In this document: one piece after another, positions 5,696 to 20,910 of the stretch
Layout: every line of letters begins with the position of its first letter
How positions within the stretch are numbered: the stretch's first letter is position 1
DNA from: Candidatus Saccharimonadales bacterium
GTDB lineage: Bacteria; Patescibacteriota; Saccharimonadia; Saccharimonadales; UBA10212
NCBI GenBank assembly: GCA_035758565.1
Contig: DASTXL010000002.1
Location: 147,118 to 211,117 of the forward strand
DNA: 64,000 bases
Direction of reading: 5' to 3'
Made by a program: the position numbers and the translations under genes
Notes under the pieces: model-generated
Database searches by the model: none
The model's input: only the letters and a program-made list of their open reading frames with translations
Told to the model about the DNA's origin: nothing

Positions 5696-6103
5696 TTAGC
5701 CGGTAATGTTTTTGATAGTGAAGTGTACCAGCAATTGCGATAAAGCCACGATAACCAAGCCGATGATGGCATAAAGAATCGTATTTTTAGCACTAGTTAC
5801 GCTAGAATCGCTGCCACCACTCGTCACATAGCGGAAGCCGCCAAAAATTATCATTATGACAGCCACCACTCCAACTACAGCCGATAAGAGGTTGACTATG
5901 TGGTGGACAAGGTCCTGGATGCTATTGCTGGCCTGGCCAACATTGCCACAGGATGCGTCGGGCGTTGACTGGGGGAACTTTAGGTTAGAGCCGCATTCTA
6001 AACCGTTATTAATAGTTTGCTGAACGGTTTGGGCCGACACAAGGCCGCCCACTCCGAGGAGTAGCGAAAAGCCGAACATCAGGGCAATCAGTTTAGCCTT
6101 CAT
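5696..6103 (-). CDS. TrbC/VirB2-like T4SS pilin paralogue P1
   Basis: Signal peptide MKAKLIALMFGFSLLLGVGGLVSA. Variable Cys-containing mature N-region. Conserved C-terminal helix-loop-helix VVAVIMIIFGGFRYVTSGGSDSSVTSAKNTILYAIIGLVIVALSQ. Confidence 0.75.
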   Translation of the reverse strand: MKAKLIALMFGFSLLLGVGGLVSAQTVQQTINNGLECGSNLKFPQSTPDASCGNVGQASNSIQDLVHHIVNLLSAVVGVVAVIMIIFGGFRYVTSGGSDSSVTSAKNTILYAIIGLVIVALSQLLVHFTIKNITG

Positions 6104-6121
6104 GCTTTATATTATAGTCTT

Positions 6122-6550
6122 TTAGGACGTAGCTTGGCTAATTACGAAGTGAACAATGACTTGGGCGATGGCGACAATTACTAAGCCGATGATGGCGTAG
6201 ATAATCGCGTTTTTAGCCGTTTTGACACCACCTTCGCTACCAGCACTGGTAACATAACGAAAGCCAGCGTAGATAATCATGACAACTGCCACAATGCCGA
6301 TAAGGGCTGAAAATACGTTAAGGATAGTTTTAATCTTGCCGCTTAAGCTGTTGCTGTCAGTCGTACAGTCGCTAGTTGCTCCTGGACTGGCAGTCCCGCT
6401 CAAATTGAAGTTGCTACCGGCACACAAATTGCCATTAATAGTCTGTTGCTGAGTGCTCTGAGCATAGCTAACCGCTGGCGCTAACACCGGCGCCGCAAAG
6501 ACGGCTAGCAGGCTGATAGCCATCACTAGGTTTTTGATTTTTTGGATCAT
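6122..6550 (-). CDS. TrbC/VirB2-like T4SS pilin paralogue P2
   Basis: Signal peptide MIQKIKNLVMAISLLAVFAAPVLA. C-terminal IVAVVMIIYAGFRYVTSAGSEGGVKTAKNAIIYAIIGLVIVAIAQ, nearly identical in pattern to P1 and P3. Confidence 0.75.
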   Translation of the reverse strand: MIQKIKNLVMAISLLAVFAAPVLAPAVSYAQSTQQQTINGNLCAGSNFNLSGTASPGATSDCTTDSNSLSGKIKTILNVFSALIGIVAVVMIIYAGFRYVTSAGSEGGVKTAKNAIIYAIIGLVIVAIAQVIVHFVISQATS

Positions 6551-6607
6551 TTTAGAATAGTTCCTTTATTACTGCTTTTAACTTATATCTAAGCATAAGA
6601 AGTGTCA

Positions 6608-6909
6608 ACCCAGCACCTAGCATCAATATTGGTAAAATCGCCTCATGTACTCTCTCTATCTGCTAAGGAGCCTTGAGACGAAAGAGTTTTACGTTGGTGC
6701 AACCCTGACTTAAGAGGCGATTTTACTCACACAACGCCTGTAAGAATATCGCCACCAAACACGGAGCACCTTTGAGGTTGGTTTATTATGAGGCATACTC
6801 GACTAAGACAGACGCCGTTCGAAGAGAAGCTAGACTGAAGCAATACGGCCAGGCTCTACGCCAAATCAAGGCCAGAATAACCTTAGTCGATTGATGCTAG
6901 GTGCTGGGT
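6608..6909. mobile_element. 302-bp element bounded by perfect 20-bp terminal inverted repeats, carrying a decayed GIY-YIG gene
   Basis: ACCCAGCACCTAGCATCAAT (6608-6627) is the exact reverse complement of ATTGATGCTAGGTGCTGGGT (6890-6909). It lies in the only large gap of the pilin array. Confidence 0.6.
6645..6894 (+). pseudogene. GIY-YIG nuclease-family mini-gene, frameshifted
   Basis: Frame 1 (6645-6713) gives MYSLYLLRSLETKEFYVGATLT*. A shifted frame (6709-6894) gives LKRRFYSHNACKNIATKHGAPLRLVYYEAYSTKTDAVRREARLKQYGQALRQIKARITLVD*. Together these resemble the small stand-alone GIY-YIG (URI-domain) proteins, with a 1-nt frame disruption near 6708-6711. Confidence 0.6.
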
Positions 6910-6922
6910 CAATAAGCTTATG

Positions 6923-7375
6923 CTAGTGGAGATTGGCGTTGGATGACTGGTCATAACCCGAGGCTGGCGGACTGGCGTCGGCGGTAGAAGATACATTGGC
7001 GATGACAAAATGAACGATTATTTGAGCCATGGCGACAATAAGCAGACCAATCATGGCGTAAATAATGCCGCTTTTAGCGGCCTTGACAGAACCCTCGCTG
7101 CCCGCACCAGCCACCAGCCTAAAGCCGGCGATGACAATCATAATTACGGCCGCTACGCCGGCGACTGCCGACAAAACATTTAAGATGGTCTTTATGGTGT
7201 TAGCAATGGTATTCCCCGGGTCGCTCGGCGCACCTTTTTGGCCAGCAGCCTGGTTAACACCCGACTGTATTGAGTCTTGAACGGCGTCAGCATAAACAAA
7301 AGATGGATTTACGGCCAAGCTTATTGGCAGCAGGGCGAGAACAGCGATAATAAGAGTCTTAATTTTGGTAATCAT
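6923..7375 (-). CDS. TrbC/VirB2-like T4SS pilin paralogue P3
   Basis: Signal peptide MITKIKTLIIAVLALLPISLAV. Core VAAVIMIVIAGFRLVAGAGSEGSVKAAKSGIIYAMIGLLIVAMAQ. Extra C-terminal tail TADASPPASGYDQSSNANLH. Confidence 0.75.
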   Translation of the reverse strand: MITKIKTLIIAVLALLPISLAVNPSFVYADAVQDSIQSGVNQAAGQKGAPSDPGNTIANTIKTILNVLSAVAGVAAVIMIVIAGFRLVAGAGSEGSVKAAKSGIIYAMIGLLIVAMAQIIVHFVIANVSSTADASPPASGYDQSSNANLH

Positions 7376-7382
7376 AAGCGTA

Positions 7383-7799
7383 TTATAACAGCGTTCCTAT
7401 TATGAAGCTGGCCAGGACCCAGGCCAGGGCGGCAATGATTAGACCCACTATGGCCGAGGTTATGCGGCTTTTGGCGCTTTTGACGTTTTCGGGGCTGCCG
7501 CCAGAGGTAATTAAGTTTATGCCGGCAACCACAATGATAATAATCGAGGCAAAACCAATAATCAGACTTAGGACTTTGGCGGTTTTAGCGATCGCGTCTA
7601 TGGCTGGATTTTTATCTTTGCCCTGTTGCTCGTTAGCCTGCTGACAAATGGCCGAGTTCTGGACGTTTGTGTTGGTGTTATTATTGCAGGCCCGATTTAG
7701 CGGATTGTAGCTGCCGATGGCTGCTGCTCCCGAGGCTAAGCTTATACTCGCAAATACCCCAGCAAACATAAGAGCGAGACACTGAAGTAATCTTTTCAT
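7383..7799 (-). CDS. TrbC/VirB2-like T4SS pilin paralogue P4
   Basis: Signal peptide MKRLLQCLALMFAGVFASISLASG. Core IIIIVVAGINLITSGGSPENVKSAKSRITSAIVGLIIAALAW. ATGA overlap with P5. Confidence 0.7.
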   Translation of the reverse strand: MKRLLQCLALMFAGVFASISLASGAAAIGSYNPLNRACNNNTNTNVQNSAICQQANEQQGKDKNPAIDAIAKTAKVLSLIIGFASIIIIVVAGINLITSGGSPENVKSAKSRITSAIVGLIIAALAWVLASFIIGTLL

Positions 7800-8089
7800 G
7801 TTTGCACCTTCAGTATAAATTCAACGATGGTCGAGGCCAGACCAATCACCAAAAGCCCAATAAAGGTATAGATAATCATACGCTTAGATTGCCCAACCAT
7901 TTCGGAGTTGTCGCCGGCCAGCGTATAGCGCAGAGCGGCAATTAAAAGAATTAAGAAGGCTATAGCGCCAATTAACACATAAAAAACGTTTAGAGCGTGC
8001 TGGATGGTCGTGCCGTTGGCCGATGTATCGGTGTGCGGCAAAGCGATATCGTTTTTATTTAATATTTGTTCGGCGATATATTTCAACAT
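7796..8089 (-). CDS. TrbC/VirB2-like T4SS pilin paralogue P5 (no obvious signal peptide)
   Basis: 97 aa. Core FLILLIAALRYTLAGDNSEMVGQSKRMIIYTFIGLLVIGLAS. The N-terminus is hydrophilic. Confidence 0.65.
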   Translation of the reverse strand: MLKYIAEQILNKNDIALPHTDTSANGTTIQHALNVFYVLIGAIAFLILLIAALRYTLAGDNSEMVGQSKRMIIYTFIGLLVIGLASTIVEFILKVQT

Positions 8090-8093
8090 ATTT

Positions 8094-8474
8094 TTAACTC
8101 AGGGAATTTCCTACAAAAGTTACCATGGCAGTGGCCGCCATCACAATGGCTAGGCCAACTATCGCATGAACAATACTGCGTCGGGAACTGGTGATTTTCT
8201 GCGGATTACCAATCGCCAGTAAGTAATTTACGCCGGCAACCATAATCATAACTACCGCAATAATACCGGCAATGTGCAGCATAATATCGAGTATGCCCAG
8301 TGCCGCAGCAAAAATATCAGATTTGATGTTGAAATTAATAATGCATTCGTTTGCGGTACTCGAGCTAGTGTCTAAGAATTGCCACCAGTGTGGGATGCCA
8401 AAGAACCCGCCCTTGCTGCAAGCATCAGCTAGGTAGGGAGCAATCATGCGAATAGCCCTCCGGGGATTAGCCAC
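8094..8474 (-). CDS. TrbC/VirB2-like T4SS pilin paralogue P6 (no obvious signal peptide)
   Basis: Core IIAVVMIMVAGVNYLLAIGNPQKITSSRRSIVHAIVGLAIVMAAT. An alternative start at 8447 (MIAPYL...) makes an ATGA overlap with the P7 stop and may be the real start. Confidence 0.65.
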   Translation of the reverse strand: MANPRRAIRMIAPYLADACSKGGFFGIPHWWQFLDTSSSTANECIINFNIKSDIFAAALGILDIMLHIAGIIAVVMIMVAGVNYLLAIGNPQKITSSRRSIVHAIVGLAIVMAATAMVTFVGNSLS

Positions 8475-8833
8475 TGCAAGAAGCCGAATATCAGCATATA
8501 GAGAACTAGCGCGATCAGTGCATTAGCAATGCGTTTTTGGGCCGCTCCAATTTCGTTAGAGTTATCGCGTGCTAAGGAATACTGAATACCGCCCAAAATT
8601 ACCATTCCAACGACTATAACCCCTACCAGGCCGCTGGCTATATTCACTACTGTACGAACATCGGCAATGAACTTATTGTGGCTCAAGCACTCTTGCTCGG
8701 TTTTGTTCACGCAGCCGTTACCAAAAGTGCTGCCAGCATCTGATCCAGCGGCTAACGATACGTGGGGGATAAAGAAACCAAGGCTAAGTATAAGCGTTGG
8801 CAAAAGCAGTAACAGTTTTAGTTTTTGTATCAT
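8444..8833 (-). CDS. TrbC/VirB2-like T4SS pilin paralogue P7
   Basis: The ORF track extends to 8854. The internal start MIQKLKLLLLLPTLILSLG at 8833 parallels the MIQKIK/MITKIK starts of P2 and P3. Core VIVVGMVILGGIQYSLARDNSNEIGAAQKRIANALIALVLYML. Confidence 0.65.
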   Translation of the reverse strand: MIQKLKLLLLLPTLILSLGFFIPHVSLAAGSDAGSTFGNGCVNKTEQECLSHNKFIADVRTVVNIASGLVGVIVVGMVILGGIQYSLARDNSNEIGAAQKRIANALIALVLYMLIFGFLQWLIPGGLFA

Positions 8834-8902
8834 GTCGCTACCTTTTTTAAGCATAACAGTTTGGCGATATTTGGCAAGAAAAGCTTAAGTGCTTTTAATC
8901 TG

Positions 8903-8929: not shown

Positions 8930-8956
8930 TTGAAACAGATATATATAAGAATAAAA

Positions 8957-11900
8957 ATGAGACTGACTAAAAGACTTGGGTTGGGCACAGTTTTAACCGT
9001 CTTGACGGTAGCCGTGCTGATGGGTCTAGTCGGATCGCGCCCAGTTAAAGCCGTTGCCGGATCTTGGTTTAGTACCGCCAACGTCCAGGCGGTATCTGGC
9101 GGTTCGGCCTTTTACTTTACGGACACGGGCGGCAAAACCGTGAATGTGAGCATAAAAGACCAAAACAATAAGTCGGTTACGGTTGGTTTTACCATAAACG
9201 GCAATGTAGCGCCGCAGAAAAACAACACATACATCTACACCAACTCAGCTGACTTTTGCCAGCCAGCAGACGGCAGCTATCCACCGGGCACTTACCAAAA
9301 AAACAGCACCATTGCCGTGCAGATCACCGGCAACAATCCTACAACCGGCAAGATTGTCCAAACCTATATAAACGGATTTACGCAAGAAAATGTTGGTGTT
9401 TGGCCCGGTCAAAACCAAACCAACTGCGGTATAGTCGTGGGCACCGGCAACAACCAGCAACACTATCCAGTAGCAATAAAACAAGATAGCGTGAGCGTTA
9501 AAAACTCTTCGCAGGCATCCGGGCCCGGCTCTAATTTCACCAAAAGCGCTGTTAGTAATTCCGTATTCAAATTTGTGGGCAACGCTGGCGTTATAAAAAT
9601 GGCCCTGCCGGGGTCTTCTGGCACCGACGCTACTTTTGTAGATAAGCAACCCTACGACAAAGATTTTAACTACGTTTCGACTTCCAAGGTTTTTTGCGAT
9701 GGCAACGGCGGATTAAGAACGGGTCAGCTGAACCTAACGCCGACTTCAACTTTTGACAGTATTGCCATTAAAGCGCAGACGGCGTTTAGCTACTTTAACG
9801 GTTCTAAATGTGTTTCGGACCCAATCACCATTAGTGTTAATAATCCCCAGGACAAGCTCACCGGTGGCATCACCTCCACGCTGGCCGAAGAATTTGCCCA
9901 GTGGGACACCGACAGCAAAGGCAATGCTGTTATCGATATCTTAAAGTGCAACACCAGTGATGCGACCTGTTCCACAGATTTTCAAATGTCTGTACTGCAG
10001 AATGCCGGCAACAAAACATATGTTCAGAACAACTCCAGCCAGTGCGGTGGCTACAACGTAAAGCTCGATTCAGTCAATGGATACACGGGTAATTTTTATC
10101 AGAACGGATCTAGCAACTGTAGCCAGTCCAACAATAGGATCGTTGGCATAACTGGCACCTACAATCAGGCTGCAGCCCCAGCTACACCCGCAGACGGCGG
10201 CGGCACAGTATCCAATCAAAGTTGCGACACCAGCACCTGGAGTTTTGGCTGGCTATTTTGCCCAATCTTATCTGGCATAGATGATGTGATCAGCAATCCC
10301 CACTATGGTTTAGACGCCGTAATTCAGGGTCAGCTCAACTTTAACACTAATGAGAATCTTGCCAATTCTGGCGTTGAGCCAGTTTGGACGGCCATTCGCG
10401 ACATATCGAGCATATTTTTGATAATTATCATGCTGGTGATGGTTATTGCCCAGGCGCTGGGTGGACTTGGGGGCCTGGACGCTTACACCGTTCGAAAAGT
10501 TTTGCCAAAAATAATTATCGCGGTTATTGCCGCTCAGATTTCCTGGAATTTGCTGATTTGGGTAATTAATGTGGCCAACGACGCCGGCCAGGGAATAGCA
10601 GACCTTATGTTCTTCCCGTTCCCGGGCGGGGCGTCCGCTATGCAATTGCAGAATCTAATAGCTAATCTGGGCGCCGGGGCGCCGGCCGGCATAACCAGCG
10701 CGGCGCTATTTTCTGGTGCTTTAGTGGTTATTTTAAATCCGTTTGGGATTGCGATTTTTGCACTGGCCGCAATCATGGCCGTTATAACCGCCGTGGCCAG
10801 CTTAATGATTAGAACAGCGCTCATTATTGGCTGTGTAATATTCTTCCCGCTGTTTATGATGGCTTGGATATTACCGGGCACTAAAAAATACTGGGACATG
10901 TGGAAGAGCAATTTTTCTAGGTTGTTGATAATGTTCCCCCTAATCATGGCCATGATTGCCGTAGGCCGGATCTTTGCTTGGATTGGGGGCCACAATGGTT
11001 CCACCGGCCTGTTTGACGTTATTGCCGTACTGGTGGGCTATTTTGGCCCGTATTTCTTTATTCCAAAAGCCTTTAAGTGGGGCGGCACACTGCTCACCCA
11101 AGCTAACGGCGCCATCAGCGGTGTGACTAGCAAAATTGGCGAGGGCCCAAAGAAGATTCTGCAAGAACGCCAAAAAGAGCTGGCTCACCAGAAGCAAATC
11201 AGCGCCGCCATGAGACTCAATGAGTTAGAGCGTGGCAATGCAGGATTCCGAAAGAAATTTGGCAGCGCTATTAGAGGAGACAAGTTGCGCTCCGGTGAGT
11301 GGGACCCGACTTACATAGGTATGCCTCCTGGTATTGGCCGAAAGGAAATGATGCGTCAACGACGTGAAAAGATGGCTAAATTCCGTGCCGCCGTACCAAG
11401 AGCCGAGGAAGAGGAAATTAAAGACGCATTTGATAAGTTAACTCTTCAACAGGCAACAATGACCGAGGACCAGCGCAGGGATAACTACAGGCGCATTATC
11501 AATGATGGAAACTCATCCTCAGCAGAAATTCAAGCTGCCCTAAAACAAGCGCTGTCAGATCGCGACTACGCCACTGTCGAAGACTGGGTTAACGCCAATA
11601 CGAACAGCGAACATGGCCGCGAACAAATCAACACTTTCCGCAAACTCAATGCCGGCGAACTATCTGTAAGAGTTCCTCACTTGCTTAAGGGTGATCTAGA
11701 TATAGATCCTAGTAGTCCGAACTATGGCCAACACCAAGGTATCATGCGAGCCGCCGGCAGCAACCAGCAAGAGGTTGCCCAGTTCCACGGCCGAACTGTT
11801 GAGGCTATAATTTCTCACCTATCGCAGAGGGCTCAAGCCGGCGATGCGGCAGCTGGTACTGCTTTGCAGGGATTTTTGCGGACATACGCCGCGGCCACCG

Positions 11901-12637
11901 CCAATCCCGATGTTAGCGGGAACATTAATCAAGACGCTGCGAATGTTGTTCGTCGTTTCGTAGACGAGCATCAAGCTGTAGCATACGACCCAGCCGGCAA
12001 TCCAATCACTTATTATCGATCGAGGCAGGGCCTGGGGCATGTTGAGCAAGGACCTGGCATGACGTACCGAGATAGCCTGATTCACGATCCCTCTTTTGCC
12101 CAAACCGTAAGTACTTTGACTACTAATGTACAGGACGGGGGAGTTATTACGCCAGGCTCAAGATCAGCCCCGCCGCCAGCCGCAGACCCAACAGTTATTC
12201 ACCTACAACACCAAACCAACTATAATGTCAGCCTGCCTCCAACGGCCGCCATTACAGCACCACCAGCTGGCGCGCCGCCAAACCCCCAAAGAGAGGCCTA
12301 TAAAGCCAGCGTTATTTCCGACGAAAGTACCGCTCAGACCCTGGCCCACAGCTTGGCCTACGACGTCGATCCTGCCGGACGAGCAACCCACATATCAGCC
12401 CTACAGGAACTTAGAACAGCCAGCGTTGGTAATGCCGACAGGACTGCTGCCTATAACTCGGTTATTACACGAATTCAACAAGCCTATACCCAAAGAGTCC
12501 GAGACGCAGCCGAACACGCCAGGGCCAACCCGCCAGCCGGCATGACACCAGATCAAGCTGCCGCGGCCGCTAGCCAAGCGGAGCAAGCTGCGATCGCGCC
12601 GCAGATGCAAGCTTTTGAAAGCATGAGGATAATTTAA
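8957..12637 (+). CDS. giant VirB6/TrbL-like polytopic T4SS membrane protein with large N-terminal ectodomain and long C-terminal extension
   Basis: The ORF track start at 8930 is a TTG; the ATG at 8957 gives MRLTKRLGLGTVLTVLTVAVLMGL (signal or anchor). A central block of at least 6 TM helices spans about nt 10370-11090 (IFLIIIMLVMVIAQAL, IIIAVIAAQISWNLLIWVINV, FGIAIFALAAIMAVITAVASLMI, CVIFFPLFMMAWIL, LLIMFPLIMAMIAVGRIF, VIAVLVGYFGPYFFIP). The stop overlaps the next start (TAATG). Confidence 0.6.
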   Translation: MRLTKRLGLGTVLTVLTVAVLMGLVGSRPVKAVAGSWFSTANVQAVSGGSAFYFTDTGGKTVNVSIKDQNNKSVTVGFTINGNVAPQKNNTYIYTNSADFCQPADGSYPPGTYQKNSTIAVQITGNNPTTGKIVQTYINGFTQENVGVWPGQNQTNCGIVVGTGNNQQHYPVAIKQDSVSVKNSSQASGPGSNFTKSAVSNSVFKFVGNAGVIKMALPGSSGTDATFVDKQPYDKDFNYVSTSKVFCDGNGGLRTGQLNLTPTSTFDSIAIKAQTAFSYFNGSKCVSDPITISVNNPQDKLTGGITSTLAEEFAQWDTDSKGNAVIDILKCNTSDATCSTDFQMSVLQNAGNKTYVQNNSSQCGGYNVKLDSVNGYTGNFYQNGSSNCSQSNNRIVGITGTYNQAAAPATPADGGGTVSNQSCDTSTWSFGWLFCPILSGIDDVISNPHYGLDAVIQGQLNFNTNENLANSGVEPVWTAIRDISSIFLIIIMLVMVIAQALGGLGGLDAYTVRKVLPKIIIAVIAAQISWNLLIWVINVANDAGQGIADLMFFPFPGGASAMQLQNLIANLGAGAPAGITSAALFSGALVVILNPFGIAIFALAAIMAVITAVASLMIRTALIIGCVIFFPLFMMAWILPGTKKYWDMWKSNFSRLLIMFPLIMAMIAVGRIFAWIGGHNGSTGLFDVIAVLVGYFGPYFFIPKAFKWGGTLLTQANGAISGVTSKIGEGPKKILQERQKELAHQKQISAAMRLNELERGNAGFRKKFGSAIRGDKLRSGEWDPTYIGMPPGIGRKEMMRQRREKMAKFRAAVPRAEEEEIKDAFDKLTLQQATMTEDQRRDNYRRIINDGNSSSAEIQAALKQALSDRDYATVEDWVNANTNSEHGREQINTFRKLNAGELSVRVPHLLKGDLDIDPSSPNYGQHQGIMRAAGSNQQEVAQFHGRTVEAIISHLSQRAQAGDAAAGTALQGFLRTYAAATANPDVSGNINQDAANVVRRFVDEHQAVAYDPAGNPITYYRSRQGLGHVEQGPGMTYRDSLIHDPSFAQTVSTLTTNVQDGGVITPGSRSAPPPAADPTVIHLQHQTNYNVSLPPTAAITAPPAGAPPNPQREAYKASVISDESTAQTLAHSLAYDVDPAGRATHISALQELRTASVGNADRTAAYNSVITRIQQAYTQRVRDAAEHARANPPAGMTPDQAAAAASQAEQAAIAPQMQAFESMRII

Positions 12638-13551
12638 TGGCAGTCTACAAAGTGATCCAGGATATCGAAGCCGAAGACAAGTTGCTTGGGCCGCTGAGCC
12701 TTAAAGGATTTGTCTATGCCGCTACGGCAGCACTGCTGGGTTTCATAAACTTCAAGTTGCTGGTTAGCGAAGCGCTGGGTCCGGTAAAGTGGGTATTCAT
12801 TTTTCTATTTATATTTCCGATGATTTTATTCGCCGTACTGGCTAGTCCATTGGGCCGTGAACAACCGACCGAAGTCTGGCTGCTAGCGCGTATTAAGTTT
12901 TTACTCAAACCTCGTCAACGTATTTGGAGTCAGCTGGGACTAAATCAGCTAGTAACAATAACTGCCCCAAAGAAAGAAGAGCAGCATCTTATCAAAGACC
13001 TTTCTCAAAATGAGGTGCAGAGTCGTCTGCAAGTTTTGGCACAAACTCTAGATACTCGTGGTTGGGCCGTCAAAAACGTGGCCGTCAACTTAAATACGTC
13101 TCCGGACTATTTGCAGGCAGCCGACCAAAACTCCGACCGGCTTATTGGCACCGATGTGCTAAACGTACCGGCACCAGTTATAGATGTTCGACCAGATGAC
13201 GATATTCTAGACGCCCAAAGTAACCCAACCGCTCAAAATTTCCAATCGCTTATGCAACAAGCCGAAGAAACCCGCAAAAAAGAATTGGCCGATAAGCTAG
13301 AGCAGGCGCGCAAGACTGGCATTATTTCTAAACCAAGCGCACCCAAAGAGAGCAATGATACCAAGGAACTGCTCAACGAAATGCACAAACGGGCCCAATT
13401 CTATACCGGAAAAACAGATACACCCTCAGTGACACCCGAGGTGCAAACTGCTAAACTGGAGCTAGCCCAAAGCGGTAATGATTTAAGCGTGGCCACGATT
13501 GCCAATTTGGTTAATCGAGGCAGCGACGAAATAGTGGTACCGCTACACTAG
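12637..13551 (+). CDS. PrgI-family (VirB3-like) T4SS membrane protein with extended C-terminal region
   Basis: N-terminus MAVYKVIQDIEAEDKLLGPLSLKGFVYAATAALLGF followed by a second TM helix, which is the PrgI/VirB3 pattern. Sits immediately upstream of the VirB4 genes. Confidence 0.65.
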   Translation: MAVYKVIQDIEAEDKLLGPLSLKGFVYAATAALLGFINFKLLVSEALGPVKWVFIFLFIFPMILFAVLASPLGREQPTEVWLLARIKFLLKPRQRIWSQLGLNQLVTITAPKKEEQHLIKDLSQNEVQSRLQVLAQTLDTRGWAVKNVAVNLNTSPDYLQAADQNSDRLIGTDVLNVPAPVIDVRPDDDILDAQSNPTAQNFQSLMQQAEETRKKELADKLEQARKTGIISKPSAPKESNDTKELLNEMHKRAQFYTGKTDTPSVTPEVQTAKLELAQSGNDLSVATIANLVNRGSDEIVVPLH

Positions 13552-13572
13552 CGCCTAGGGGTGGGATAAACA

Positions 13573-14505
13573 ATGAATGACGGCCAAACACCAAATCAAA
13601 ATCTACCGTTTATACCGGGAACACCATATCCTGGCGTTTCTGTAACTCCAGGATCTAGCATACCTCCAGCACCAAGCACTCTGCCGACCTCCAGCCCGCC
13701 GCCCGTACCGTCGATACCGGGTCAGCCACCCGTCGCCGGCGTTCCGCCTACGCCTTCTGCTAAAGAAAAAGGTTCGGCGACCAACCCAAACAGCACTCAA
13801 AATGCTCTCTTGATAAGCGAGATTCGCGACGGCATTATCATCATGAACGACGGCACTTTCCGGGCGGTAATTATGTGCAAGTCTATTAACTTCGACCTCA
13901 TGAGCCCCGAAGAGCGAGAAGCCGTTGAATTTAGTTATCAGGGATTCTTGAACTCGCTTTACTTCCCAATTCAAATATTTATCCGCAGCCAAAAAGTTGA
14001 TATCCGTCCTTACCTAGAAAAAATGGACAAGATTCGTACTCAAACCGACAATATGTTGCTTGGCCTTTTAATGGAAGATTATGTTGCCTTTTTGGCTGAC
14101 ATTGCCCAGCAAACCAACATTATGGACAAACGTTTTTACGTGGTAATTGAATACCCGGATCCAGACGAAAAAGATCTTAAGAGCTCTATTAAGCAAAGCA
14201 CTGGTTTCTTCACCGGCTTAGCCGATCTTTTTGCTCCCAAGAGTACGCATGTTGTGGTCAATGAGGCGCAGCTGGAACAGGCTAAAACAGAGTTGCGCAA
14301 CCGGGTGCAAGCCGTAATGCAGGGTCTGCAGGAGTGCGGCGTTCAAAGTATTCCGCTAGACACCCAGGAGTTAATCGAGCTTTACTACGACGCCTACAAT
14401 CCTGACACCGCCACCCGCCAGCAGTTAAAAAACTTCGAAGATCTAACGGCTCCGGTCATCACCAAAGCCACCAGTCCACAAGCTAATCCGGGAGGAGCTA
14501 GCTAA
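13573..14505 (+). CDS. T4SS-associated protein: Pro-rich N-terminus plus VirB4 N-terminal-domain-like region, no ATPase domain
   Basis: DGTFRAVIMCKSINFDLMSPEEREAVEFSYQGFLNSLYFPIQIFIRSQKVDIRPYL...RFYVVIEY follows the pattern of the VirB4/TrbE N-domain. No Walker motifs. TAATG coupling to virB4. Confidence 0.5.
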   Translation: MNDGQTPNQNLPFIPGTPYPGVSVTPGSSIPPAPSTLPTSSPPPVPSIPGQPPVAGVPPTPSAKEKGSATNPNSTQNALLISEIRDGIIIMNDGTFRAVIMCKSINFDLMSPEEREAVEFSYQGFLNSLYFPIQIFIRSQKVDIRPYLEKMDKIRTQTDNMLLGLLMEDYVAFLADIAQQTNIMDKRFYVVIEYPDPDEKDLKSSIKQSTGFFTGLADLFAPKSTHVVVNEAQLEQAKTELRNRVQAVMQGLQECGVQSIPLDTQELIELYYDAYNPDTATRQQLKNFEDLTAPVITKATSPQANPGGAS

Positions 14506-16430
14506 TGGCTTTATTTGGCAAAAAAAATAAGACGCCTATTACTCCAGCCATGCAACAGGCTCTGGAACAACAAGAGGTAAGTTCGGCTTTTGCCAAGGGC
14601 GTAACCGCACTGCGCGACTTTATCGCGCCGAGCTCGCTGGTGTTTAATGGCAATTATTTTCAGCTCGGCACCCGTTATGCTCGCACCTACTATGTCTACG
14701 GCTATCCTCGTCAGCTCTACACCGGCTGGCTATCTGGCATGGTTAACCTCGATGAGGTTATGGACCTGTCGATTGTTATTCATCCAGTAGATAGCCAGGT
14801 GGTTTTAAATAATTTGCGCAAAAAAGTTTCTCAACTAGAAGCTGGCATCCAGATCGATTCCGAAAAGGGCCGTGTCCGTGACCCAGGCAAAGAAGCAGCC
14901 GTGCAAGACGCCGAAGAAATGCGCGACAAATTACAGGTAGGTGAAGAACGTTTCTTCCGCTACGGCATGTACTTCACAATCTACGGCGGCTCAATGGAGG
15001 AGTTGGAGTTTGTCAGCCACAAGGTTGAAAGCCTTCTGGGCCAGCAGCTTATTTATTCCAAGGCAGCCACCGCTCAACAAGAACAAGGCTTGAATAGTTG
15101 CTTGCCGCAGTTCAGCGACCAGCTGCAGATTTATCGCAACATGAATACCGGCGCCATTTCTACCAGCTTTCCTTTTACCAGCGCCGACCTATCCCAAGAT
15201 AACGGCATTCTTTATGGCATTAATATGCATAATTCTGGCCTGGTGATCTTTGACCGCTTTAGTTTGGAGAATGGCAACAGCGTGGTGTTTGCTAAATCCG
15301 GCGCCGGCAAAAGCTTTACCGTTAAGCTTGAAGCTTTGCGCTCTATGATGCTTGGTACGGAAATATTCATTATCGACCCCGAAAACGAATACCAAAAAAT
15401 GTGCGATGCCGTCGGCGGTGCATATGTCCGCCTGAGCTTAAACAGCGTTACCCGGATTAATCCGTTTGATCTACCAAAGGTCATTGATACCGATGACGCC
15501 GACAATCCTCTGCGCTCTAACCTTATTACTTTGCACGGTTTACTGCGGTTAATGATGGGCGGTGCCCAAATAGAAATGCAGGCGGCCAACGGAGCAGCCG
15601 TAGCACCGGCGCTAACTCCGGTAGAAGAAGCCGATCTAGATGCCGCCTTAATTGAAACTTACGCAAAAGCCGGCATCACTAACGACCCACTAACTCATGG
15701 CAGCACGCCGCCAACCATTAATGATCTTTACGATACTTTGCTGCACATGGGCGGCACCGGACCGCAACTGGCTCAGCGTTTGCGCAAATACACCAGTGGA
15801 ACTTTTGCCGGTATCTTCAGCCAACAGAGCAATGTTGACGTCAATAACGCAATGGTAGTGTTTAACATTCGTGACCTAGAAGATGAGTTACGCCCGGTAG
15901 CCATGTATATTGTCTTGAATTATATCTGGAATAAGACTAAGGCCGACAAGCGCCGCCGCATGCTGGTTGTTGACGAGGCCTGGCAGTTAATGCGCTACGA
16001 AGATAGCGCCAACTTCTTGTTTAGTCTGGCTAAGCGAGCTCGCAAGTACGAGCTCGGCATCACTACTATTACTCAAGATGTCGAGGACTTTATGGCCAGT
16101 CGCATGGGTAGGGCAATCGTAGCCAACGCCAGTATGCAGATTTTGCTCAAGCAATCACCAACCGCCGTGGATGTTTTAAGCGATGTCTTTAAGTTAACCA
16201 GCGAAGAGAAGAAGCGCCTCAGCCAGTTCCCGGTTGGACAAGGTTTGTTCTTTGCCGGCCAGAACCACGTTCATATTCAAGTTATCGCTAGTCCGACCGA
16301 ACAAGAACTTATTACAACTACCCCAACTCTTGAGCAAGAAGCTTCCCCTCGAGCCGAAGTACCTCTGGCAGACAGCCAGCTTCCCTCGGATCTAGAAGCT
16401 GCCCAAGCCCAACCAGCTAGCGGAGTTTAA
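14505..16430 (+). CDS. virB4: VirB4-family T4SS ATPase (monoderm PrgJ/TcpF-like type)
   Basis: N-domain YARTYYVYGYPRQLYTGWLSGMVNLDEVMDLSIVIHP. Walker A FAKSGAGKSF. Walker B RRRMLVVDEAWQL. Downstream ITTITQDVEDF. Confidence 0.9.
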   Translation: MALFGKKNKTPITPAMQQALEQQEVSSAFAKGVTALRDFIAPSSLVFNGNYFQLGTRYARTYYVYGYPRQLYTGWLSGMVNLDEVMDLSIVIHPVDSQVVLNNLRKKVSQLEAGIQIDSEKGRVRDPGKEAAVQDAEEMRDKLQVGEERFFRYGMYFTIYGGSMEELEFVSHKVESLLGQQLIYSKAATAQQEQGLNSCLPQFSDQLQIYRNMNTGAISTSFPFTSADLSQDNGILYGINMHNSGLVIFDRFSLENGNSVVFAKSGAGKSFTVKLEALRSMMLGTEIFIIDPENEYQKMCDAVGGAYVRLSLNSVTRINPFDLPKVIDTDDADNPLRSNLITLHGLLRLMMGGAQIEMQAANGAAVAPALTPVEEADLDAALIETYAKAGITNDPLTHGSTPPTINDLYDTLLHMGGTGPQLAQRLRKYTSGTFAGIFSQQSNVDVNNAMVVFNIRDLEDELRPVAMYIVLNYIWNKTKADKRRRMLVVDEAWQLMRYEDSANFLFSLAKRARKYELGITTITQDVEDFMASRMGRAIVANASMQILLKQSPTAVDVLSDVFKLTSEEKKRLSQFPVGQGLFFAGQNHVHIQVIASPTEQELITTTPTLEQEASPRAEVPLADSQLPSDLEAAQAQPASGV

Positions 16431-16433
16431 AGC

Positions 16434-19400
16434 ATGGCGGAACCGGCACGCCAGTTTGATAACAGCGAAGAACAAGAGAGGGCCAAGCTGCGCGACCTAG
16501 GCGGTGGCGGCCAAGGCGGCGGGCCCGCTAGTTCGCGCGATAACATCAAGGCCGCCCCAGACCCGGTGTATGATACCAAAGGTAATGCGCCCGTAGATCA
16601 GCCGGGTCGCAACCTAAGGTCCGTGCCGGATAAGGACCAATTAAACAACGCCGAAAATAGCGGTGGTCAGGTCGGCGGTCTCGCTCCGCAGCACGAGGGC
16701 GCCTTTGAACGCGGCTACACAGGCCAGGGGAGCCCCAAGGGACTGTCTCGCTTTTCTCTAAAAGGCCGCTTGAGCCGGCGCCGCGCCGTGGTGGGCGGCG
16801 GCGTGCTGGCTGGGGGCATAATTACCGCAGCCGTTCTTTTTACTACTGTTTCCGGCCCGCTTGAGTTTATTCACTTTGCCCAAACGCTGACTCGTTTTCA
16901 CTTTTCGGCCCAAAACGACACCCAGGACGGCCGCTTTTTGAAAGAGGTTAGGTTTTTTAGGTACGCCAAATCCGGCCAGCTAGAAAAAACGCGCCTCAAT
17001 GTTTTTGCCAATAAGTGGGCCGACAGCTACGAGGCCAAGATTGGCACCAGCGGCTTATCGTCGGCCTACTCGCCGATTTTTCAAAACTTTGACGGCTATG
17101 TGGTTGACCGATCGCAGTTTAAAAACCCTGACGGATCCCAAATGAGCGACGACAAAATAAAGGCAACTATTAAGGATCAATACGGCGTCGAAGCCATTGA
17201 CGGCGACGGTTTAGCACACAACCCCGGGCTTAAGGGCAGGTTAGTTGTTAGCTCCAGAGATCTAAGTGCCCTGGAAAATATTAAGTTGACCTACGGACTG
17301 CTGAGGGCTCAGGGGCTAAATAAATTATCGGCCATAAACGGCACCCGTCTTTTGATAGTTCGCGACGGCGTCACTCTTCACCCGATAAAAATTTTGAAGA
17401 CCAAAGGAGAAACCGCCGCCGAACTAAAAAAGGCCGCCTATCAAAGCGAAAATCAAGATATTAGCTCTGGCAGCACTACAGAAGTAACCGCCACAGACTC
17501 CACCGAAAACAATTCTAATTCCACAGAAAATCAAAAATCTTCGGCGGCCAGCGCCAAAGAAGGCGGTGAAGAGCTGGTAAAGGCCGGCGAGGACCTGGCC
17601 AGTAGCCTGGAGTCTGGCGGAGACGAAAGCTCGGTAAAAAGTAGCGCTTCCAGTCTAAAATCCGGATTTCTCAATGCCGGGCTTTTGTATGGTACAGCCT
17701 GTGTCGTTAACGGCATCAATAAAAACGCTGCTACCTTGGAGCAAATACACGTTGTCGAGCCCTTAATCAGGATGGCAATGTGGACCATAGCACTTGGCAG
17801 CCAGATTCAAAGCGGCCAGGGCATAGACTTAGATACCCTCCACGCCTATGCCGAACAGCTCGATGGTATAGACTCTAGCAATAATCAATCCTCTTGGATT
17901 AATAGCGAGAGCATTCAAGCCAACCTGGGCCACGCCAACACCGGCGTGCCACCGGACAGTACCCTAAAGAGCATAAACGCCAATAAGGTTCCGTTCCCCT
18001 GGATGCAGCCTTTTTCCGGCGCGGTTGATGTAGCCTGCAGTACTCCAGTGGTGGCGGCCGGCGTGCTGGTTGGTTTCCTGGGCGGCGATATCGCTACGGT
18101 CGCGCTGGACGGTCTAAAGCAAGCTTTAGCAACCGACGCGATAGACCGCGTCGTATCACTTTGGGCAAGCGGCACAGCTATAGACCCCGTAGCCGTGGGT
18201 GCCGACAGGGGTAACGAGGCCGACTTTGGTGCTGCCTTGGCTGCCAACGATCATTCGATAGCTGCCGGCGGCGTGGCTCTCAGCACCTCGCAGCAATCCG
18301 TTCTTAACAACTTAACCAATCAAGCCTCAACCGCTGAATTCAATAGTCACAGTCTGGCCTATAGAATCTTTGACCCCTATGATCAGCGCACAGCAATTTC
18401 AAGCCTAATAGATAATTCCAGCACCAGCGTCACCCAAAACATCGCCAAAATGGGTTCGGCTATGCTAAACATTGGCCATATTTTTGGGTCCATCGGCAGC
18501 CTATTCAGCCCCAAGGCCCAAGCCGCTTCTGCGGTGCCTTATGATTATGGCTTTCCGATTTATGGTTTTAGCGCCTCGGAACTAAACGACTCTAGATTCG
18601 AAAATCCTTATCAAAACGCCTGCTATGTGGTTGGTGGTTGCAAAGATCCGGACACCGGCCAGCCGATATCTGGATTTTTGAGTGTTGATCCTGGCACCGG
18701 ACAACCCAGCCCTGAAGACCCCTACCTAAAAAAGGCGACTGCCTGTTTTGACGTTAAGATAGCCCCGGACGCCAACGGTAATTGGGCGGTAACCAGTTTA
18801 ACATCCGACGAAAATAATAAATTTGAGGTGTATAACAAGAACAAATACCCTGCTGATTGCGCCAACCCCACCGGACTTGATCCCACCAACTGGCAGCGCC
18901 TGCGCTTCTTTATATTAGACGAGGAAACAGCCGACAGTATGGGTTGCTATGCCGGCGACACCCAAGGCTGCACCAACATTGGCGCCAACGCTAACGACAT
19001 ATCGTCCAGCGGTTCTGGATCCGGGGCTACCGGCTCTACCGATACCGGCGATAACTCCCAGTTGGCCCAAAAAATCCTAGACTACCGCAGCACCGGCCAG
19101 TACAAATGCGACAACCCCGGCGACTGCACCGATCTACAAAAAGTGGCCAGCAACCAAAGTATTGCCGGCAGTGATGGCTGTAAGGCTCAGAATCTGGATC
19201 CCAAGGTTCTACAGCTAATTCTATATTTGATAGAGGTGGGCAACTTTAAAATAGGCACTTACGCCTTGTGCGGCGACCACAGCTTTGATAGTCTGGGCGG
19301 CCACTCTGGCGGTCACGCCGTAGACATAGATTCCATCAACGGCGTGTTTGTTAATAACGATTCGGCCCAGGCCAAAAGCTTAACTCTGGGCCTGGATCAA

Positions 19401-19592
19401 TACCTCAATAACAATCTGCCTTCCGATCTCAATATTAAGCAGCTAATCTCGTTTGGCTATGGCAACCATCAGGACTCCGATCTTCAGGCCCAGCAGCGCG
19501 CCAATGGTCAACTTTGCACTTCTTCGTGTCTGGGTTTTTATGGAATAAGTACAGAGCTAGAACACATGAATCATGTCCACGTAGGTTTTTAG
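16434..19592 (+). CDS. membrane-anchored T4SS-associated protein with C-terminal LAS-family (M15-like) zinc peptidase domain; functional analogue of VirB1/PrgK-type wall hydrolases
   Basis: Single TM VVGGGVLAGGIITAAVLFTTV. The C-terminal region (about nt 19060-19589) has GGHSGGHAVDID, matching the LAS motif (S/G)xHxxGxAxD, and a terminal NHVHV (HxH). Confidence 0.6.
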   Translation: MAEPARQFDNSEEQERAKLRDLGGGGQGGGPASSRDNIKAAPDPVYDTKGNAPVDQPGRNLRSVPDKDQLNNAENSGGQVGGLAPQHEGAFERGYTGQGSPKGLSRFSLKGRLSRRRAVVGGGVLAGGIITAAVLFTTVSGPLEFIHFAQTLTRFHFSAQNDTQDGRFLKEVRFFRYAKSGQLEKTRLNVFANKWADSYEAKIGTSGLSSAYSPIFQNFDGYVVDRSQFKNPDGSQMSDDKIKATIKDQYGVEAIDGDGLAHNPGLKGRLVVSSRDLSALENIKLTYGLLRAQGLNKLSAINGTRLLIVRDGVTLHPIKILKTKGETAAELKKAAYQSENQDISSGSTTEVTATDSTENNSNSTENQKSSAASAKEGGEELVKAGEDLASSLESGGDESSVKSSASSLKSGFLNAGLLYGTACVVNGINKNAATLEQIHVVEPLIRMAMWTIALGSQIQSGQGIDLDTLHAYAEQLDGIDSSNNQSSWINSESIQANLGHANTGVPPDSTLKSINANKVPFPWMQPFSGAVDVACSTPVVAAGVLVGFLGGDIATVALDGLKQALATDAIDRVVSLWASGTAIDPVAVGADRGNEADFGAALAANDHSIAAGGVALSTSQQSVLNNLTNQASTAEFNSHSLAYRIFDPYDQRTAISSLIDNSSTSVTQNIAKMGSAMLNIGHIFGSIGSLFSPKAQAASAVPYDYGFPIYGFSASELNDSRFENPYQNACYVVGGCKDPDTGQPISGFLSVDPGTGQPSPEDPYLKKATACFDVKIAPDANGNWAVTSLTSDENNKFEVYNKNKYPADCANPTGLDPTNWQRLRFFILDEETADSMGCYAGDTQGCTNIGANANDISSSGSGSGATGSTDTGDNSQLAQKILDYRSTGQYKCDNPGDCTDLQKVASNQSIAGSDGCKAQNLDPKVLQLILYLIEVGNFKIGTYALCGDHSFDSLGGHSGGHAVDIDSINGVFVNNDSAQAKSLTLGLDQYLNNNLPSDLNIKQLISFGYGNHQDSDLQAQQRANGQLCTSSCLGFYGISTELEHMNHVHVGF

Positions 19593-19593
19593 T

Positions 19594-20910
19594 ATGAGGA
19601 TTTTTAAATCTAATCAGAATCTTAAAAGACTTTCATTGATGATTGTATGTTCGATGCTAATGATTGGGGTATCATTTTCTGGCACTCTTGCTCTAAGCGA
19701 TGAGCAAATTAAACTATTTGATCAGGGAATTTACTACTTTGATGCCGCCTTGTCTTCCTCAACTCCTTACTGCAGCTTAGGTAGTGGAACCCTGCCATCC
19801 CAGGTTCCGTCGCCCTACAACGGCATTTTTACCGCTGCCGCTTCGAAGTTCGGCATACCACCGGCGCTTTTGGCGTCCATATTCTACGGCGGCGAACACG
19901 GCAACAGCTTTCCGGACCCGCCTCCACCTTATGGCCATGGAAGTCCGTGGGCCTCTTCGCCAACCGGCGCCCAAGGTCCATTTCAATTCGAGCCCAACAC
20001 CTGGCCATCTTACGCGCAGGACGGTAATGGCGACGGAGTTAAAGATGTTCAAGACTTAACCGACGCGGCCTTTGCAGGCGCCAACTATCTTTCAGACCTG
20101 GGCGGCAAAACCGCCAACAACGAGTCCGCTGTCAGGGACGTAGCTTGGAAATACAACGAAGGTCCCGGCGGCAACCCCAACCCCAACGGTTCTTACGCCA
20201 ACAATGTTTGGGCGGCTTTTCAGAGCTTTAGCGGTGGTGGCTCTGGCGCCCCTGCCACAGTCGACACTTCGACTACCACCAGCGCCCCACCTACTGGCTG
20301 CAGTGGAAGCTCCTCGCTCGGCTCTATAACCATAAATCAGGATGGCAGCTTTGGTACGGGCGACGGTTTAATGGGTCATCCGCCGACCATGATCGGCGTT
20401 CACTATACCGCTGGCAACGAACAAACGGTTCAAGACGTTATAAGCGACCTCAAAGACCCAACCGGCAGCAAGCACTGCAACCACGTGACCCATACCTGCA
20501 GCGTTCAACTAACCGTTCTGCCTGACGGCAGTATTTATCAGCTAACGTCTCGTTTAGATGTAGTGACCGAAAATATTATTAACTTTAACGACGCCGATAT
20601 TGGCATAGAGATTGTCGGTAAAGACGAATCGACCCTGCTGGGCAACCAGGCTCAGTTCAAATCTGTCGTGGCCTTAGTAGCCCAGCTAATGCAGAAGTAT
20701 AATATCAAAATGGAACAGAACTTCATTCAAAAATCTGGCCTGATGGGCCATATGGAATGCGACGCATGGAGCGGCGGTCATATCGGCAGTAAGTTTTCAG
20801 GTATATATAGCGGCGATAGCTCCGTAGAATCTACCGACGGCCACACCGACCCCGGGCCAACCTACATGTCTAACCTTAGGGACGCGTTAAGCAAAGGGGG
20901 TGTATCATGA
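19594..20910 (+). CDS. bifunctional cell-wall hydrolase: lytic transglycosylase (SLT/MltB-like) plus N-acetylmuramoyl-L-alanine amidase (amidase_2/PGRP-like)
   Basis: Signal anchor. GAQGPFQFEPNTWPSYAQDGNGDGVKDVQDLTDAAFAGANYL matches the MltB-type SLT pattern. The C-terminal half has IGVHYTAG...DIGIEIVG...GLMGHMECD...HTDPGP, matching the amidase_2 pattern. Confidence 0.7.
   Translation: MRIFKSNQNLKRLSLMIVCSMLMIGVSFSGTLALSDEQIKLFDQGIYYFDAALSSSTPYCSLGSGTLPSQVPSPYNGIFTAAASKFGIPPALLASIFYGGEHGNSFPDPPPPYGHGSPWASSPTGAQGPFQFEPNTWPSYAQDGNGDGVKDVQDLTDAAFAGANYLSDLGGKTANNESAVRDVAWKYNEGPGGNPNPNGSYANNVWAAFQSFSGGGSGAPATVDTSTTTSAPPTGCSGSSSLGSITINQDGSFGTGDGLMGHPPTMIGVHYTAGNEQTVQDVISDLKDPTGSKHCNHVTHTCSVQLTVLPDGSIYQLTSRLDVVTENIINFNDADIGIEIVGKDESTLLGNQAQFKSVVALVAQLMQKYNIKMEQNFIQKSGLMGHMECDAWSGGHIGSKFSGIYSGDSSVESTDGHTDPGPTYMSNLRDALSKGGVS

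Follow-up and report, generated by a model that had tools for sequence, protein, structure and literature searches.

A 300-nt unit lies on the + strand, between the conjugation-type pilin genes P2 and P3 of a type IV secretion system (T4SS), in the 64-kb stretch of Saccharibacteria DNA analyzed here (the window). We read this unit, with a probability of roughly 0.6, as a decayed copy of a mini-element that resembles an insertion sequence (IS), is related to the Ssn nucleases and carries the gene for an 83-85-aa GIY-YIG nuclease inside a three-helix fold. The unit spans positions 6609-6908 (CCCAGC...GCTGGG), its limits being given both by its absence from a syntenic locus and by the extent of homology between related units.

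The closest relative with a corresponding pilin locus, GCA_964402725.1 (L034), has the gene order pilin-pilin-P3-P2-P1-HSP20. There the P2 orthologue adjoins the P3 orthologue across a spacer of 69 nt, compared with 372 nt in the window, and the site is uninterrupted (GTGTCAATAAGC). This empty site contains a single TCAA (GGTGTCAATAAGCTTATG, within the spacer sequence ...ACTGCTTTTAACTTATACGTGTTGTCAGCCGGTGTCAATAAGCTTATG...), whereas TCAA is present on both sides of the unit in the window, at 6605-6608 and 6909-6912, where the junctions read ...AGTGTCAA(CCCAGC - 300 nt - GCTGGG)TCAATAAGCTTATG.... The window exceeds L034 by 304 bases, made up of the unit and the second TCAA. The unit thus entered the P3-P2 spacer as a discrete insertion with a 4-nt target duplication.

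The ends of the unit are complementary. Positions 6608-6627 (ACCCAGCACCTAGCATCAAT) and 6890-6909 match as 20-nt arms with 100% complementarity and 262 nt between them, and at up to three mismatches these arms are the only two matches in the 64 kb (chance expectation 0.01). Nineteen of the 20 nt form the conserved terminal repeat; the outermost A/T pair is part of the duplicated TCAA. An earlier sequence-only reading of the window had picked out this perfect repeat and had pointed to empty sites in relatives, to further copies and to intact copies with the same termini as evidence of mobility. L034 supplied the empty site and the Saccharibacteria units described below supplied the shared termini; further copies were found in other genomes and none in the window itself. 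Of the miniature homing or mobile cassette that had been suggested, the mobile part is borne out by the empty site, the TCAA duplication, the bounded homology and the common termini, and the homing part is not.

The gene inside the unit encodes a GIY-YIG protein. On the + strand, opposite to the pilins as the sequence-only reading had it, the ATG at 6645 opens a frame beginning MYSLYLLRSLETKEFYVGATLT that is stopped by a TAA at 6711-6713 (N-terminal fragment 6645-6713, 22 codons plus stop). A second frame, shifted by +1, runs from 6709 to 6894 (61 codons plus stop), reads LKRRFYSHN...ARITLVD and ends with a TGA at 6892-6894, a stop codon that does lie within the right arm. The rejoined protein scored 54.9 bits against the Pfam profile PF01541 (cut-off 22.6); the C-terminal piece alone scored 29 bits, and the N-terminal piece 14.3. 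The residues that are invariant in the family (Y5, Y16, G18, R26, H30, N31, E50, R61 and E62) are all retained, and both profile score and conserved residues place the rejoined protein in the GIY-YIG superfamily. Intact homologues are 83-85 aa long and contain no further Pfam domain, so they are single-domain proteins. An AlphaFold2 model (pLDDT 89.4) has the order beta-beta-alpha-beta-alpha-alpha and superposed best on Slx1 (7cq3, TM 0.70 over the query) and BH0048 (1zg2). Among solved structures the family profile scored 35.9 bits with UPF0213 protein BH0048 and 23.8 bits with SLX1.

Alignment with intact homologues puts the frame break in the T-P-D-L codons, where two bases were lost at about 6703-6709 (a +1/-2 shift), leaving ACCCCTGATCTT in the window in place of ACCC-TGA-CTT. 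The disruption noted earlier is therefore real, although it was taken to be of 1 nt. The window copy also has substitutions at two otherwise conserved residues, Y3S and W44L, and is a decayed pseudogene. Two of the ten Saccharibacteria copies are broken, with different lesions: the second, L015, is an independent pseudogene with a frameshift near the C-terminus and E62G. Programmed frameshifting was considered and found unlikely; homologues are unshifted, L015 is broken elsewhere and two conserved residues are altered in the window. The Logan assembly L001 is identical to the window unit including the frame break, and may stem from the same reads.

Related units occur at many unrelated sites. 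A profile search returned 638 relatives, and 4,909 were found at E <= 1e-10 among 1.84 billion cluster representatives. Intact proteins with 60-72% identity were present in Saccharibacteria metagenomes and metagenome-assembled genomes (MAGs), in at least six other genomic contexts, which include sites beside nrdR, between genes for an S1 protein and a ROK kinase, in another T4SS cluster, at atpB/malic enzyme and beside murB. In all Saccharibacteria contexts the ends are CCCAGCAC(Y)TA(G/C)... and ...(C/G)TA(R)GTGCTGGG, with 263 nt between the arms. Despite the unrelated surroundings, the alignable sequence between units starts and stops exactly at the terminal repeat. Short direct repeats flank most of the units: TCAA in the window and L005, AAAA at the nrdR site, TTGA in L040, TTATA in L023 and CAA in L022. 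The S1-ROK spacer measures 170 nt in L040 and 484 nt in L003, where it holds a unit; this fits an empty site, the spacers having diverged too far for the junction to be placed to the base. We also tried L005 as another empty site; its T4SS region is arranged too differently from the window to be used.

The restored target of the window (6605-6618) and that of L040 (2455-2470, reverse complement) share the 10-nt sequence TCAATAAGCT, with the units in opposite orientation. The neighboring genes at these two insertions are unrelated and the neighbor in L040 is not a pilin, which rules out that L040 represents the pilin-linked site of the window. The shared target hints at a target-sequence preference. 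One copy, in L005, sits in a T4SS cluster (PrgI, TraC-like, TraG-like), and the other copies outside the window lie away from pilins.

Strict scans for the end pattern found three loci in 185,579 species genomes, a collection that did not include the genome of the window, and five metagenome loci; all were single-copy and most were already known to us. In viral contigs, protein patterns revealed no relative, and a relaxed end pattern gave at least 120 loci, none of which had a GIY-YIG relative; we judged these to be chance matches. Neither the 64-kb window nor the related loci, about 200 kb in all, contained extra copies or solo ends, each contig having one copy. None of the 120 listed family proteins traced to the source contig of the window, which suggests that no intact copy exists there.

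Some family members belong to longer open reading frames (ORFs). Of the best 150 family representatives, 64 were at least 190 aa long, and 50 of these 64 carried the canonical cleavage motif of type IV prepilins, G|FTL(I/V)E, between residues 85 and 132. The motif (Pfam N_methyl) directly follows the GIY-YIG domain, for example in P0157, P0160, P0164, P0170, P0172, P0177, P0178 and P0194, so that the nuclease domain forms a giant "leader" of a protein resembling type IV pilins. The two best-scoring representatives, P0151 (214 aa) and P0152 (205 aa), have two tandem near-identical GIY-YIG domains per called ORF, as would be expected if the unit was repeated in tandem and its copies are read as a single gene.

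Three helices are conserved in the units. An alignment of nine units gave an RNAalifold consensus in which helix H1 consists of the terminal inverted repeats (6609-6627 and 6890-6908, the latter holding the stop codon). Helix H2 pairs the 13 nt directly before the ATG (6632-6644), which include TAAAAT, with their perfect complement in the RRFY(S) codons at 6714-6726. The arms of helix H3 are both coding: the 5' arm (6800-6808) lies in the codons of the PTK region, which is STK in the window, and the 3' arm (6881-6889) in the TLV codons, where H3 stacks on H1. Across the nine units, 98.8% of cells in H1 were paired, with compensatory changes at 7 of 19 pairs. H2 is kept in the homologues, also with compensatory changes. 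H3 has them at four of its nine pairs, eight of which are retained in the window, and some of its compensations are synonymous (ACT/TTA versus ACC/TTG). Taken together the helices comprise 39 pairs, with 96% of cells paired and 14 pairs compensatory; none of 500 shuffles was as good, and pairing fell to 31-39% when the partner was slid by one to three columns.

Single sequences also folded far better than their shuffles, with z between -4.4 and -7.0 as DNA or RNA and on either strand. For the window, z was -4.95 as DNA (6605-6912, the unit with both TCAA copies), and -5.3 (+ strand) and -6.5 (- strand) for the unit as RNA. The pairing is almost purely Watson-Crick: when the paired positions of the nine units were scored, no more than 2% were G.U. 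In H1 alone, G.U and A.C mismatches numbered 5 and 1, favoring the sense strand. The Watson-Crick bias and the equal number of G.U-type mismatches on the two strands, in nine sequences, are a hint that the structure is needed at the DNA level, or in transcripts from either strand, and would fit an ordinary RNA element less well. The TAAAAT within the 5' strand of H2 (6634-6639 in the window), 6 nt upstream of the ATG, is conserved in all Saccharibacteria units, and no Shine-Dalgarno sequence is present. TAAAAT could be a -10 box giving a leaderless mRNA that begins at the ATG. In that case H2 would block translation solely in read-through transcripts, as in IS10, which is known for fold-back inhibition.

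The gene-in-a-stem layout extends beyond Saccharibacteria. A Yonathbacteria member (L028:2987-3277) is 48% identical. Its enclosing 19-bp repeat differs entirely in sequence (CCCCCCACCACAATATGCA / TGCGTATTGTGGTGGGGGG), overlaps the start codon and resumes right after the stop codon. ORF and stem interlock even more tightly here than in the family of the window. A WOR-3 member, 51% identical and with the same CCCAGCAC ends, lies within the RNase P RNA gene (RF00010, 200 bits) at L041:2453-3096 of the MAG GCA_030643605.1, and also in L042 and L043. Its unit occupies 2477-2773. The 5' strands of P1 and P2 precede the unit and P4 (AGGAAAGTCCGGGC) follows directly, and therefore H1 stands in for the P3 hairpin, with the ORF in its loop; cmscan had wrongly labeled the right arm of the unit as P1/P2. 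We also noted that P8 of this RNase P RNA (L041:2804-2828, CCCAGCACATAGTTTATGTGCTGGG) consists of the two unit ends joined by a loop of 2-3 nt. This "solo hairpin" recalls the dispersed Ssn-related repeats and is the only one we saw.

We compared the unit with known systems, among which the window protein seems closest, by sequence, to the Ssn single-domain nucleases (CDD cd10448). These enzymes, specific for single-stranded DNA (ssDNA), bind ssDNA hairpins that flank their own genes, and an IS-like gene layout has been noted for them (Chenal et al. 2025, PMC11893778). One of them, SsnA, has 94 aa and a single GIY-YIG domain; it binds an ssDNA hairpin and cuts beside it (PMC11893778). We took the SsnA sequence and locus from the gonococcal record L035 (NZ_CP119142.1), reached through a tblastn match (34% identity). 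Against the family profile, gonococcal SsnA scored 44.8 bits, above every solved structure, including BH0048 of UPF0213 (cd10456). The L035 locus has NTS repeats on both sides of ssnA in inverted orientation. Its ssnA frame has no in-frame 5' ATG, and an N-terminal disruption may be present. Two 2.17-Mb Neisseria gonorrhoeae records in PLSDB, one of them L035 (listed as a plasmid), are clearly chromosomes.

The likeness consists of a single GIY-YIG domain of about 85-95 aa, a C-terminal REKxLK...helix and a gene bracketed by pairing inverted repeats. The differences lie in the flanks, which are not local hairpins here, since the arms pair across the whole gene and leave it in the loop, and in the extra conserved helices within the coding region. 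The published pattern of the Ssn-related motif (SRM) had no match at ten units, compared with six NTS in a 1.4-kb Neisseria control. Dispersed cognate repeats, which characterize Ssn systems, were likewise missing, with no further copies in the 64-kb window or in related loci. For the present unit we document both a target duplication and an empty site; a search of the Ssn paper gave no report of either kind apart from the title of one reference (PMC11893778).

A second comparison is with rRNA genes of bacteria of the Candidate Phyla Radiation (CPR). Insertions of a non-intron kind (neither group I nor II) in these genes contain small GIY-YIG ORFs (Tsurumaki et al. 2024, PMC11270868). They are scattered over sites of low conservation, usually the top or the base of a stem-loop, and the authors concluded that they do not spread by homing (PMC11270868). 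The WOR-3 unit, located at P3 of RNase P RNA, is a parallel case. The passages of that paper on GIY-YIG describe no terminal inverted repeats, target duplications or conserved fold (PMC11270868), and the insertions lie in RNA genes whereas the window copy lies in a spacer of protein genes.

The unit has the general features of an IS, namely terminal inverted repeats, a target duplication and presence/absence at a defined site. Its only ORF encodes the 83-85-aa GIY-YIG protein, which belongs to none of the recognized transposase classes (DDE, HUH, serine, tyrosine). The transposases of IS200/IS605 elements and REP/RAYT (REPtron) systems are HUH Y1 enzymes that form covalent intermediates; these elements cause no target duplication, and domesticated, vertically inherited copies of them exist. 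Like these, the unit is small, has a gene bracketed by inverted palindromic repeats and would employ a nuclease on folded ssDNA ends; it differs in its hydrolytic GIY-YIG enzyme and its duplications of 3-5 nt. Correia-type miniature inverted-repeat transposable elements (MITEs) are non-coding and multi-copy, and in operon spacers they are transcribed into folds that RNase III can cut. The unit resembles them in its size range (about 100-400 bp), terminal inverted repeats, short target duplications and insertion in an operon spacer, and falls outside the MITE definition in that it encodes a protein and occurs once per contig. The minimal GIY-YIG fold of its protein is also that of UPF0213/YhbQ and SLX1. 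SLX1 is a structure-specific nuclease with extra domains and a partner. UPF0213/YhbQ and SLX1 are stable cellular genes that, as far as we know, have no enclosing repeats.

On the IS-like explanation, the unit inserted whole between P3 and P2, antisense to the pilins, duplicating TCAA, and a later loss of 2 nt in the TPDL codons inactivated the window copy. The unit's own nuclease would mobilize it: we infer that, in single-stranded or extruded DNA, the enzyme recognizes the stem formed by the conserved CCCAGCAC/GTGCTGGG ends and cuts this stem at its base. The duplication of 3-5 nt could then arise if an A-rich target (TCAA/AAAA-like) is cut with a stagger and repaired by the host. Because the fold closes on either strand, the unit would be tolerated within transcribed or structured-RNA regions.

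Several observations weigh against this explanation. We found only one clean empty site (L034), and no flanking direct repeat at L003 or L041. A scan of 6300-7200 gave no promoter-like site. Across the nine units, mismatches of the G.U type were equally frequent on the sense and antisense strands (8 versus 8), without strand bias. The one-copy state gives no sign of active proliferation. The nrdR-adjacent copies (L002:4966-5266, L008:4966-5266, L015:4984-5286 and L016:2040-2341) are syntenic, with flanks about 69% identical, and their arms show compensatory changes in situ (CCTAG/CTAGG versus CTTAG/CTAAG). These copies are one old insertion, which can therefore persist vertically with an intact ORF, in the manner of a domesticated gene. 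Finally, we know of no strand transfer or ligation by a hydrolytic 83-aa GIY-YIG enzyme, and of no GIY-YIG transposase.

A further-reaching version of the explanation makes the unit an autonomous 300-bp transposon, whose sole protein, the 83-85-aa GIY-YIG nuclease, recognizes its own ends as a folded stem and cuts short A-rich targets; the NTS-like Ssn hairpins of Neisseria would then be gene-less derivatives. We put this forward tentatively, as a possibility that is more probably wrong than right.

The unit could instead be a non-autonomous, MITE-like element moved in trans by a DDE transposase that recognizes CC... ends, with the GIY-YIG gene as a passenger. Terminal inverted repeats with target duplications of 3-5 bp are the classic DDE signature, the unit is of MITE size, and IS1380-type elements have CC ends and duplications of 4-5 bp (ISfinder family tables). 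A passenger gene does not account for the joint occurrence of gene and enclosing stem in Saccharibacteria, Yonathbacteria and WOR-3, or for start and stop codons that overlap the stem, and a MITE has no need of the conserved internal helices H2 and H3. The units are moreover single-copy, and no IS with matching ends was seen in any fetched locus. We consider this reading unlikely.

An ordinary small host gene is an alternative to which we assign a low probability. It would encode a toxic or regulated nuclease, its mRNA locked in the manner of hok or IS10 by pairing of the 5' and 3' ends and of the start site, and would have been shuffled by recombination. In its favor, the 13 nt before the ATG are taken up by H2, with the 3' end enclosed by H1 and H3; TAAAAT might provide a leaderless mRNA; at the nrdR site the gene has been kept by vertical descent; and H1 of the WOR-3 unit has to form at the RNA level, where it is P3 of RNase P. 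This account is at odds with the clean 304-nt presence/absence difference with a duplicated TCAA, with the repeated flanking duplications of 3-5 nt and with homology that ends exactly at the repeat in unrelated contexts. A G.U share of 2% without strand bias would also be unusual for a structure that acts in RNA only.

We regard as improbable to a high degree that the unit is a free-standing GIY-YIG homing endonuclease gene, copied into cut empty alleles by double-strand-break repair. The GIY-YIG domain, the weak similarity to group I intron endonucleases at their N-terminus (TIGR01453, 20 bits where the cut-off is 56) and the difference in presence/absence between relatives speak for it. However, homing endonucleases of the I-TevI and Seg type have a second domain, whereas the proteins of 83-85 aa have no DNA-binding domain, and homing leaves no target duplication. 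The sites are in unrelated genes and share a motif of at most 4-10 nt, with no conserved long homing site. The CPR rRNA survey also placed GIY-YIG insertions outside homing (PMC11270868).

The sequence-only reading had further proposed that the unit has a role in duplication, gene conversion or diversification of the pilin paralogues, and that its stem processes or attenuates the pilin transcript; the position in an operon spacer and the stable closed structures formed by both strands are compatible with this, and yet we give it hardly any weight, as the paralogues are only 49% identical, the L034 array has no unit and, except for L005 in its T4SS cluster, the other copies lie away from pilins. 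Taken by itself, the suggested role of the stem may hold, since both strands fold into a closed structure.

The surroundings of the unit agree with an insertion into an existing array. Seven tightly packed T4SS pilin genes (PF18895) lie on the - strand, and the 372-nt P2-P3 spacer is indeed their only large gap, as had been noted. P2 (6122-6550, - strand, 51.8 bits) is downstream in the pilin operon and P3 (6923-7375, - strand, 40.7 bits) has the orthologue P0122 with 67% identity; both are outside the element. The stop codon of P3 is 10 nt from the right TCAA copy and 14 nt from the end of the unit. P2 and P3, earlier called near-identical, are old paralogues at 49% protein identity. Because L034 has the P3-P2-P1 order without the element, the array is older than the insertion, which therefore has no tie to paralogue duplication. 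The seven consecutive paralogues (5696-8854) face a divergent + strand cluster (8930-22265) whose first protein has 1,235 aa.

Next to the insertion, the flanks 6588-6598 and 6917-6926 form an imperfect inverted repeat (CTAAGCATAAG / CTTATGC-TAG), and a perfect palindrome, ATAAGCTTAT (6912-6921), adjoins the target TCAA. Once restored, the window target would fold into a hairpin whose loop contains the insertion point; L034, at its empty site, lacks the left arm. The scan of 6300-7200 gave one terminator-like hairpin, inside P3. At the gathering threshold Rfam returned only two tRNAs, and nothing but noise for 6500-7000 at E <= 10. PADLOC gave no meaningful match.

A single-domain GIY-YIG gene bracketed by pairing repeats has been known since 2025. 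What is new is the architecture with the gene inside the stem and covarying internal helices, a CPR/WOR-3 lineage without the Ssn-related motif, and base-exact evidence of insertion. We found no earlier demonstration in the literature that an Ssn-type IS-like unit moves. The window provides, for an Ssn-related gene, a comparison of filled and empty sites with a 4-bp duplication, and hence direct sequence evidence of movement as a unit. The window unit itself is a dead copy in a pilin operon spacer, of modest biology, which may have a polar effect. If movement is due to the nuclease, the unit would constitute a transposition system that is new as well as extremely compact, which could explain the origin of dispersed hairpin repeats. 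If the unit is autonomous, it would define an IS class of its own and be smaller than any protein-coding mobile element known so far, and its closed fold would make it harmless in either orientation in operons, in RNase P RNA and possibly in CPR rRNA. Together with the insertion in RNase P RNA, the published and unexplained GIY-YIG insertions in CPR rRNA suggest a general strategy in which a self-closing insert is tolerated by structured RNAs.

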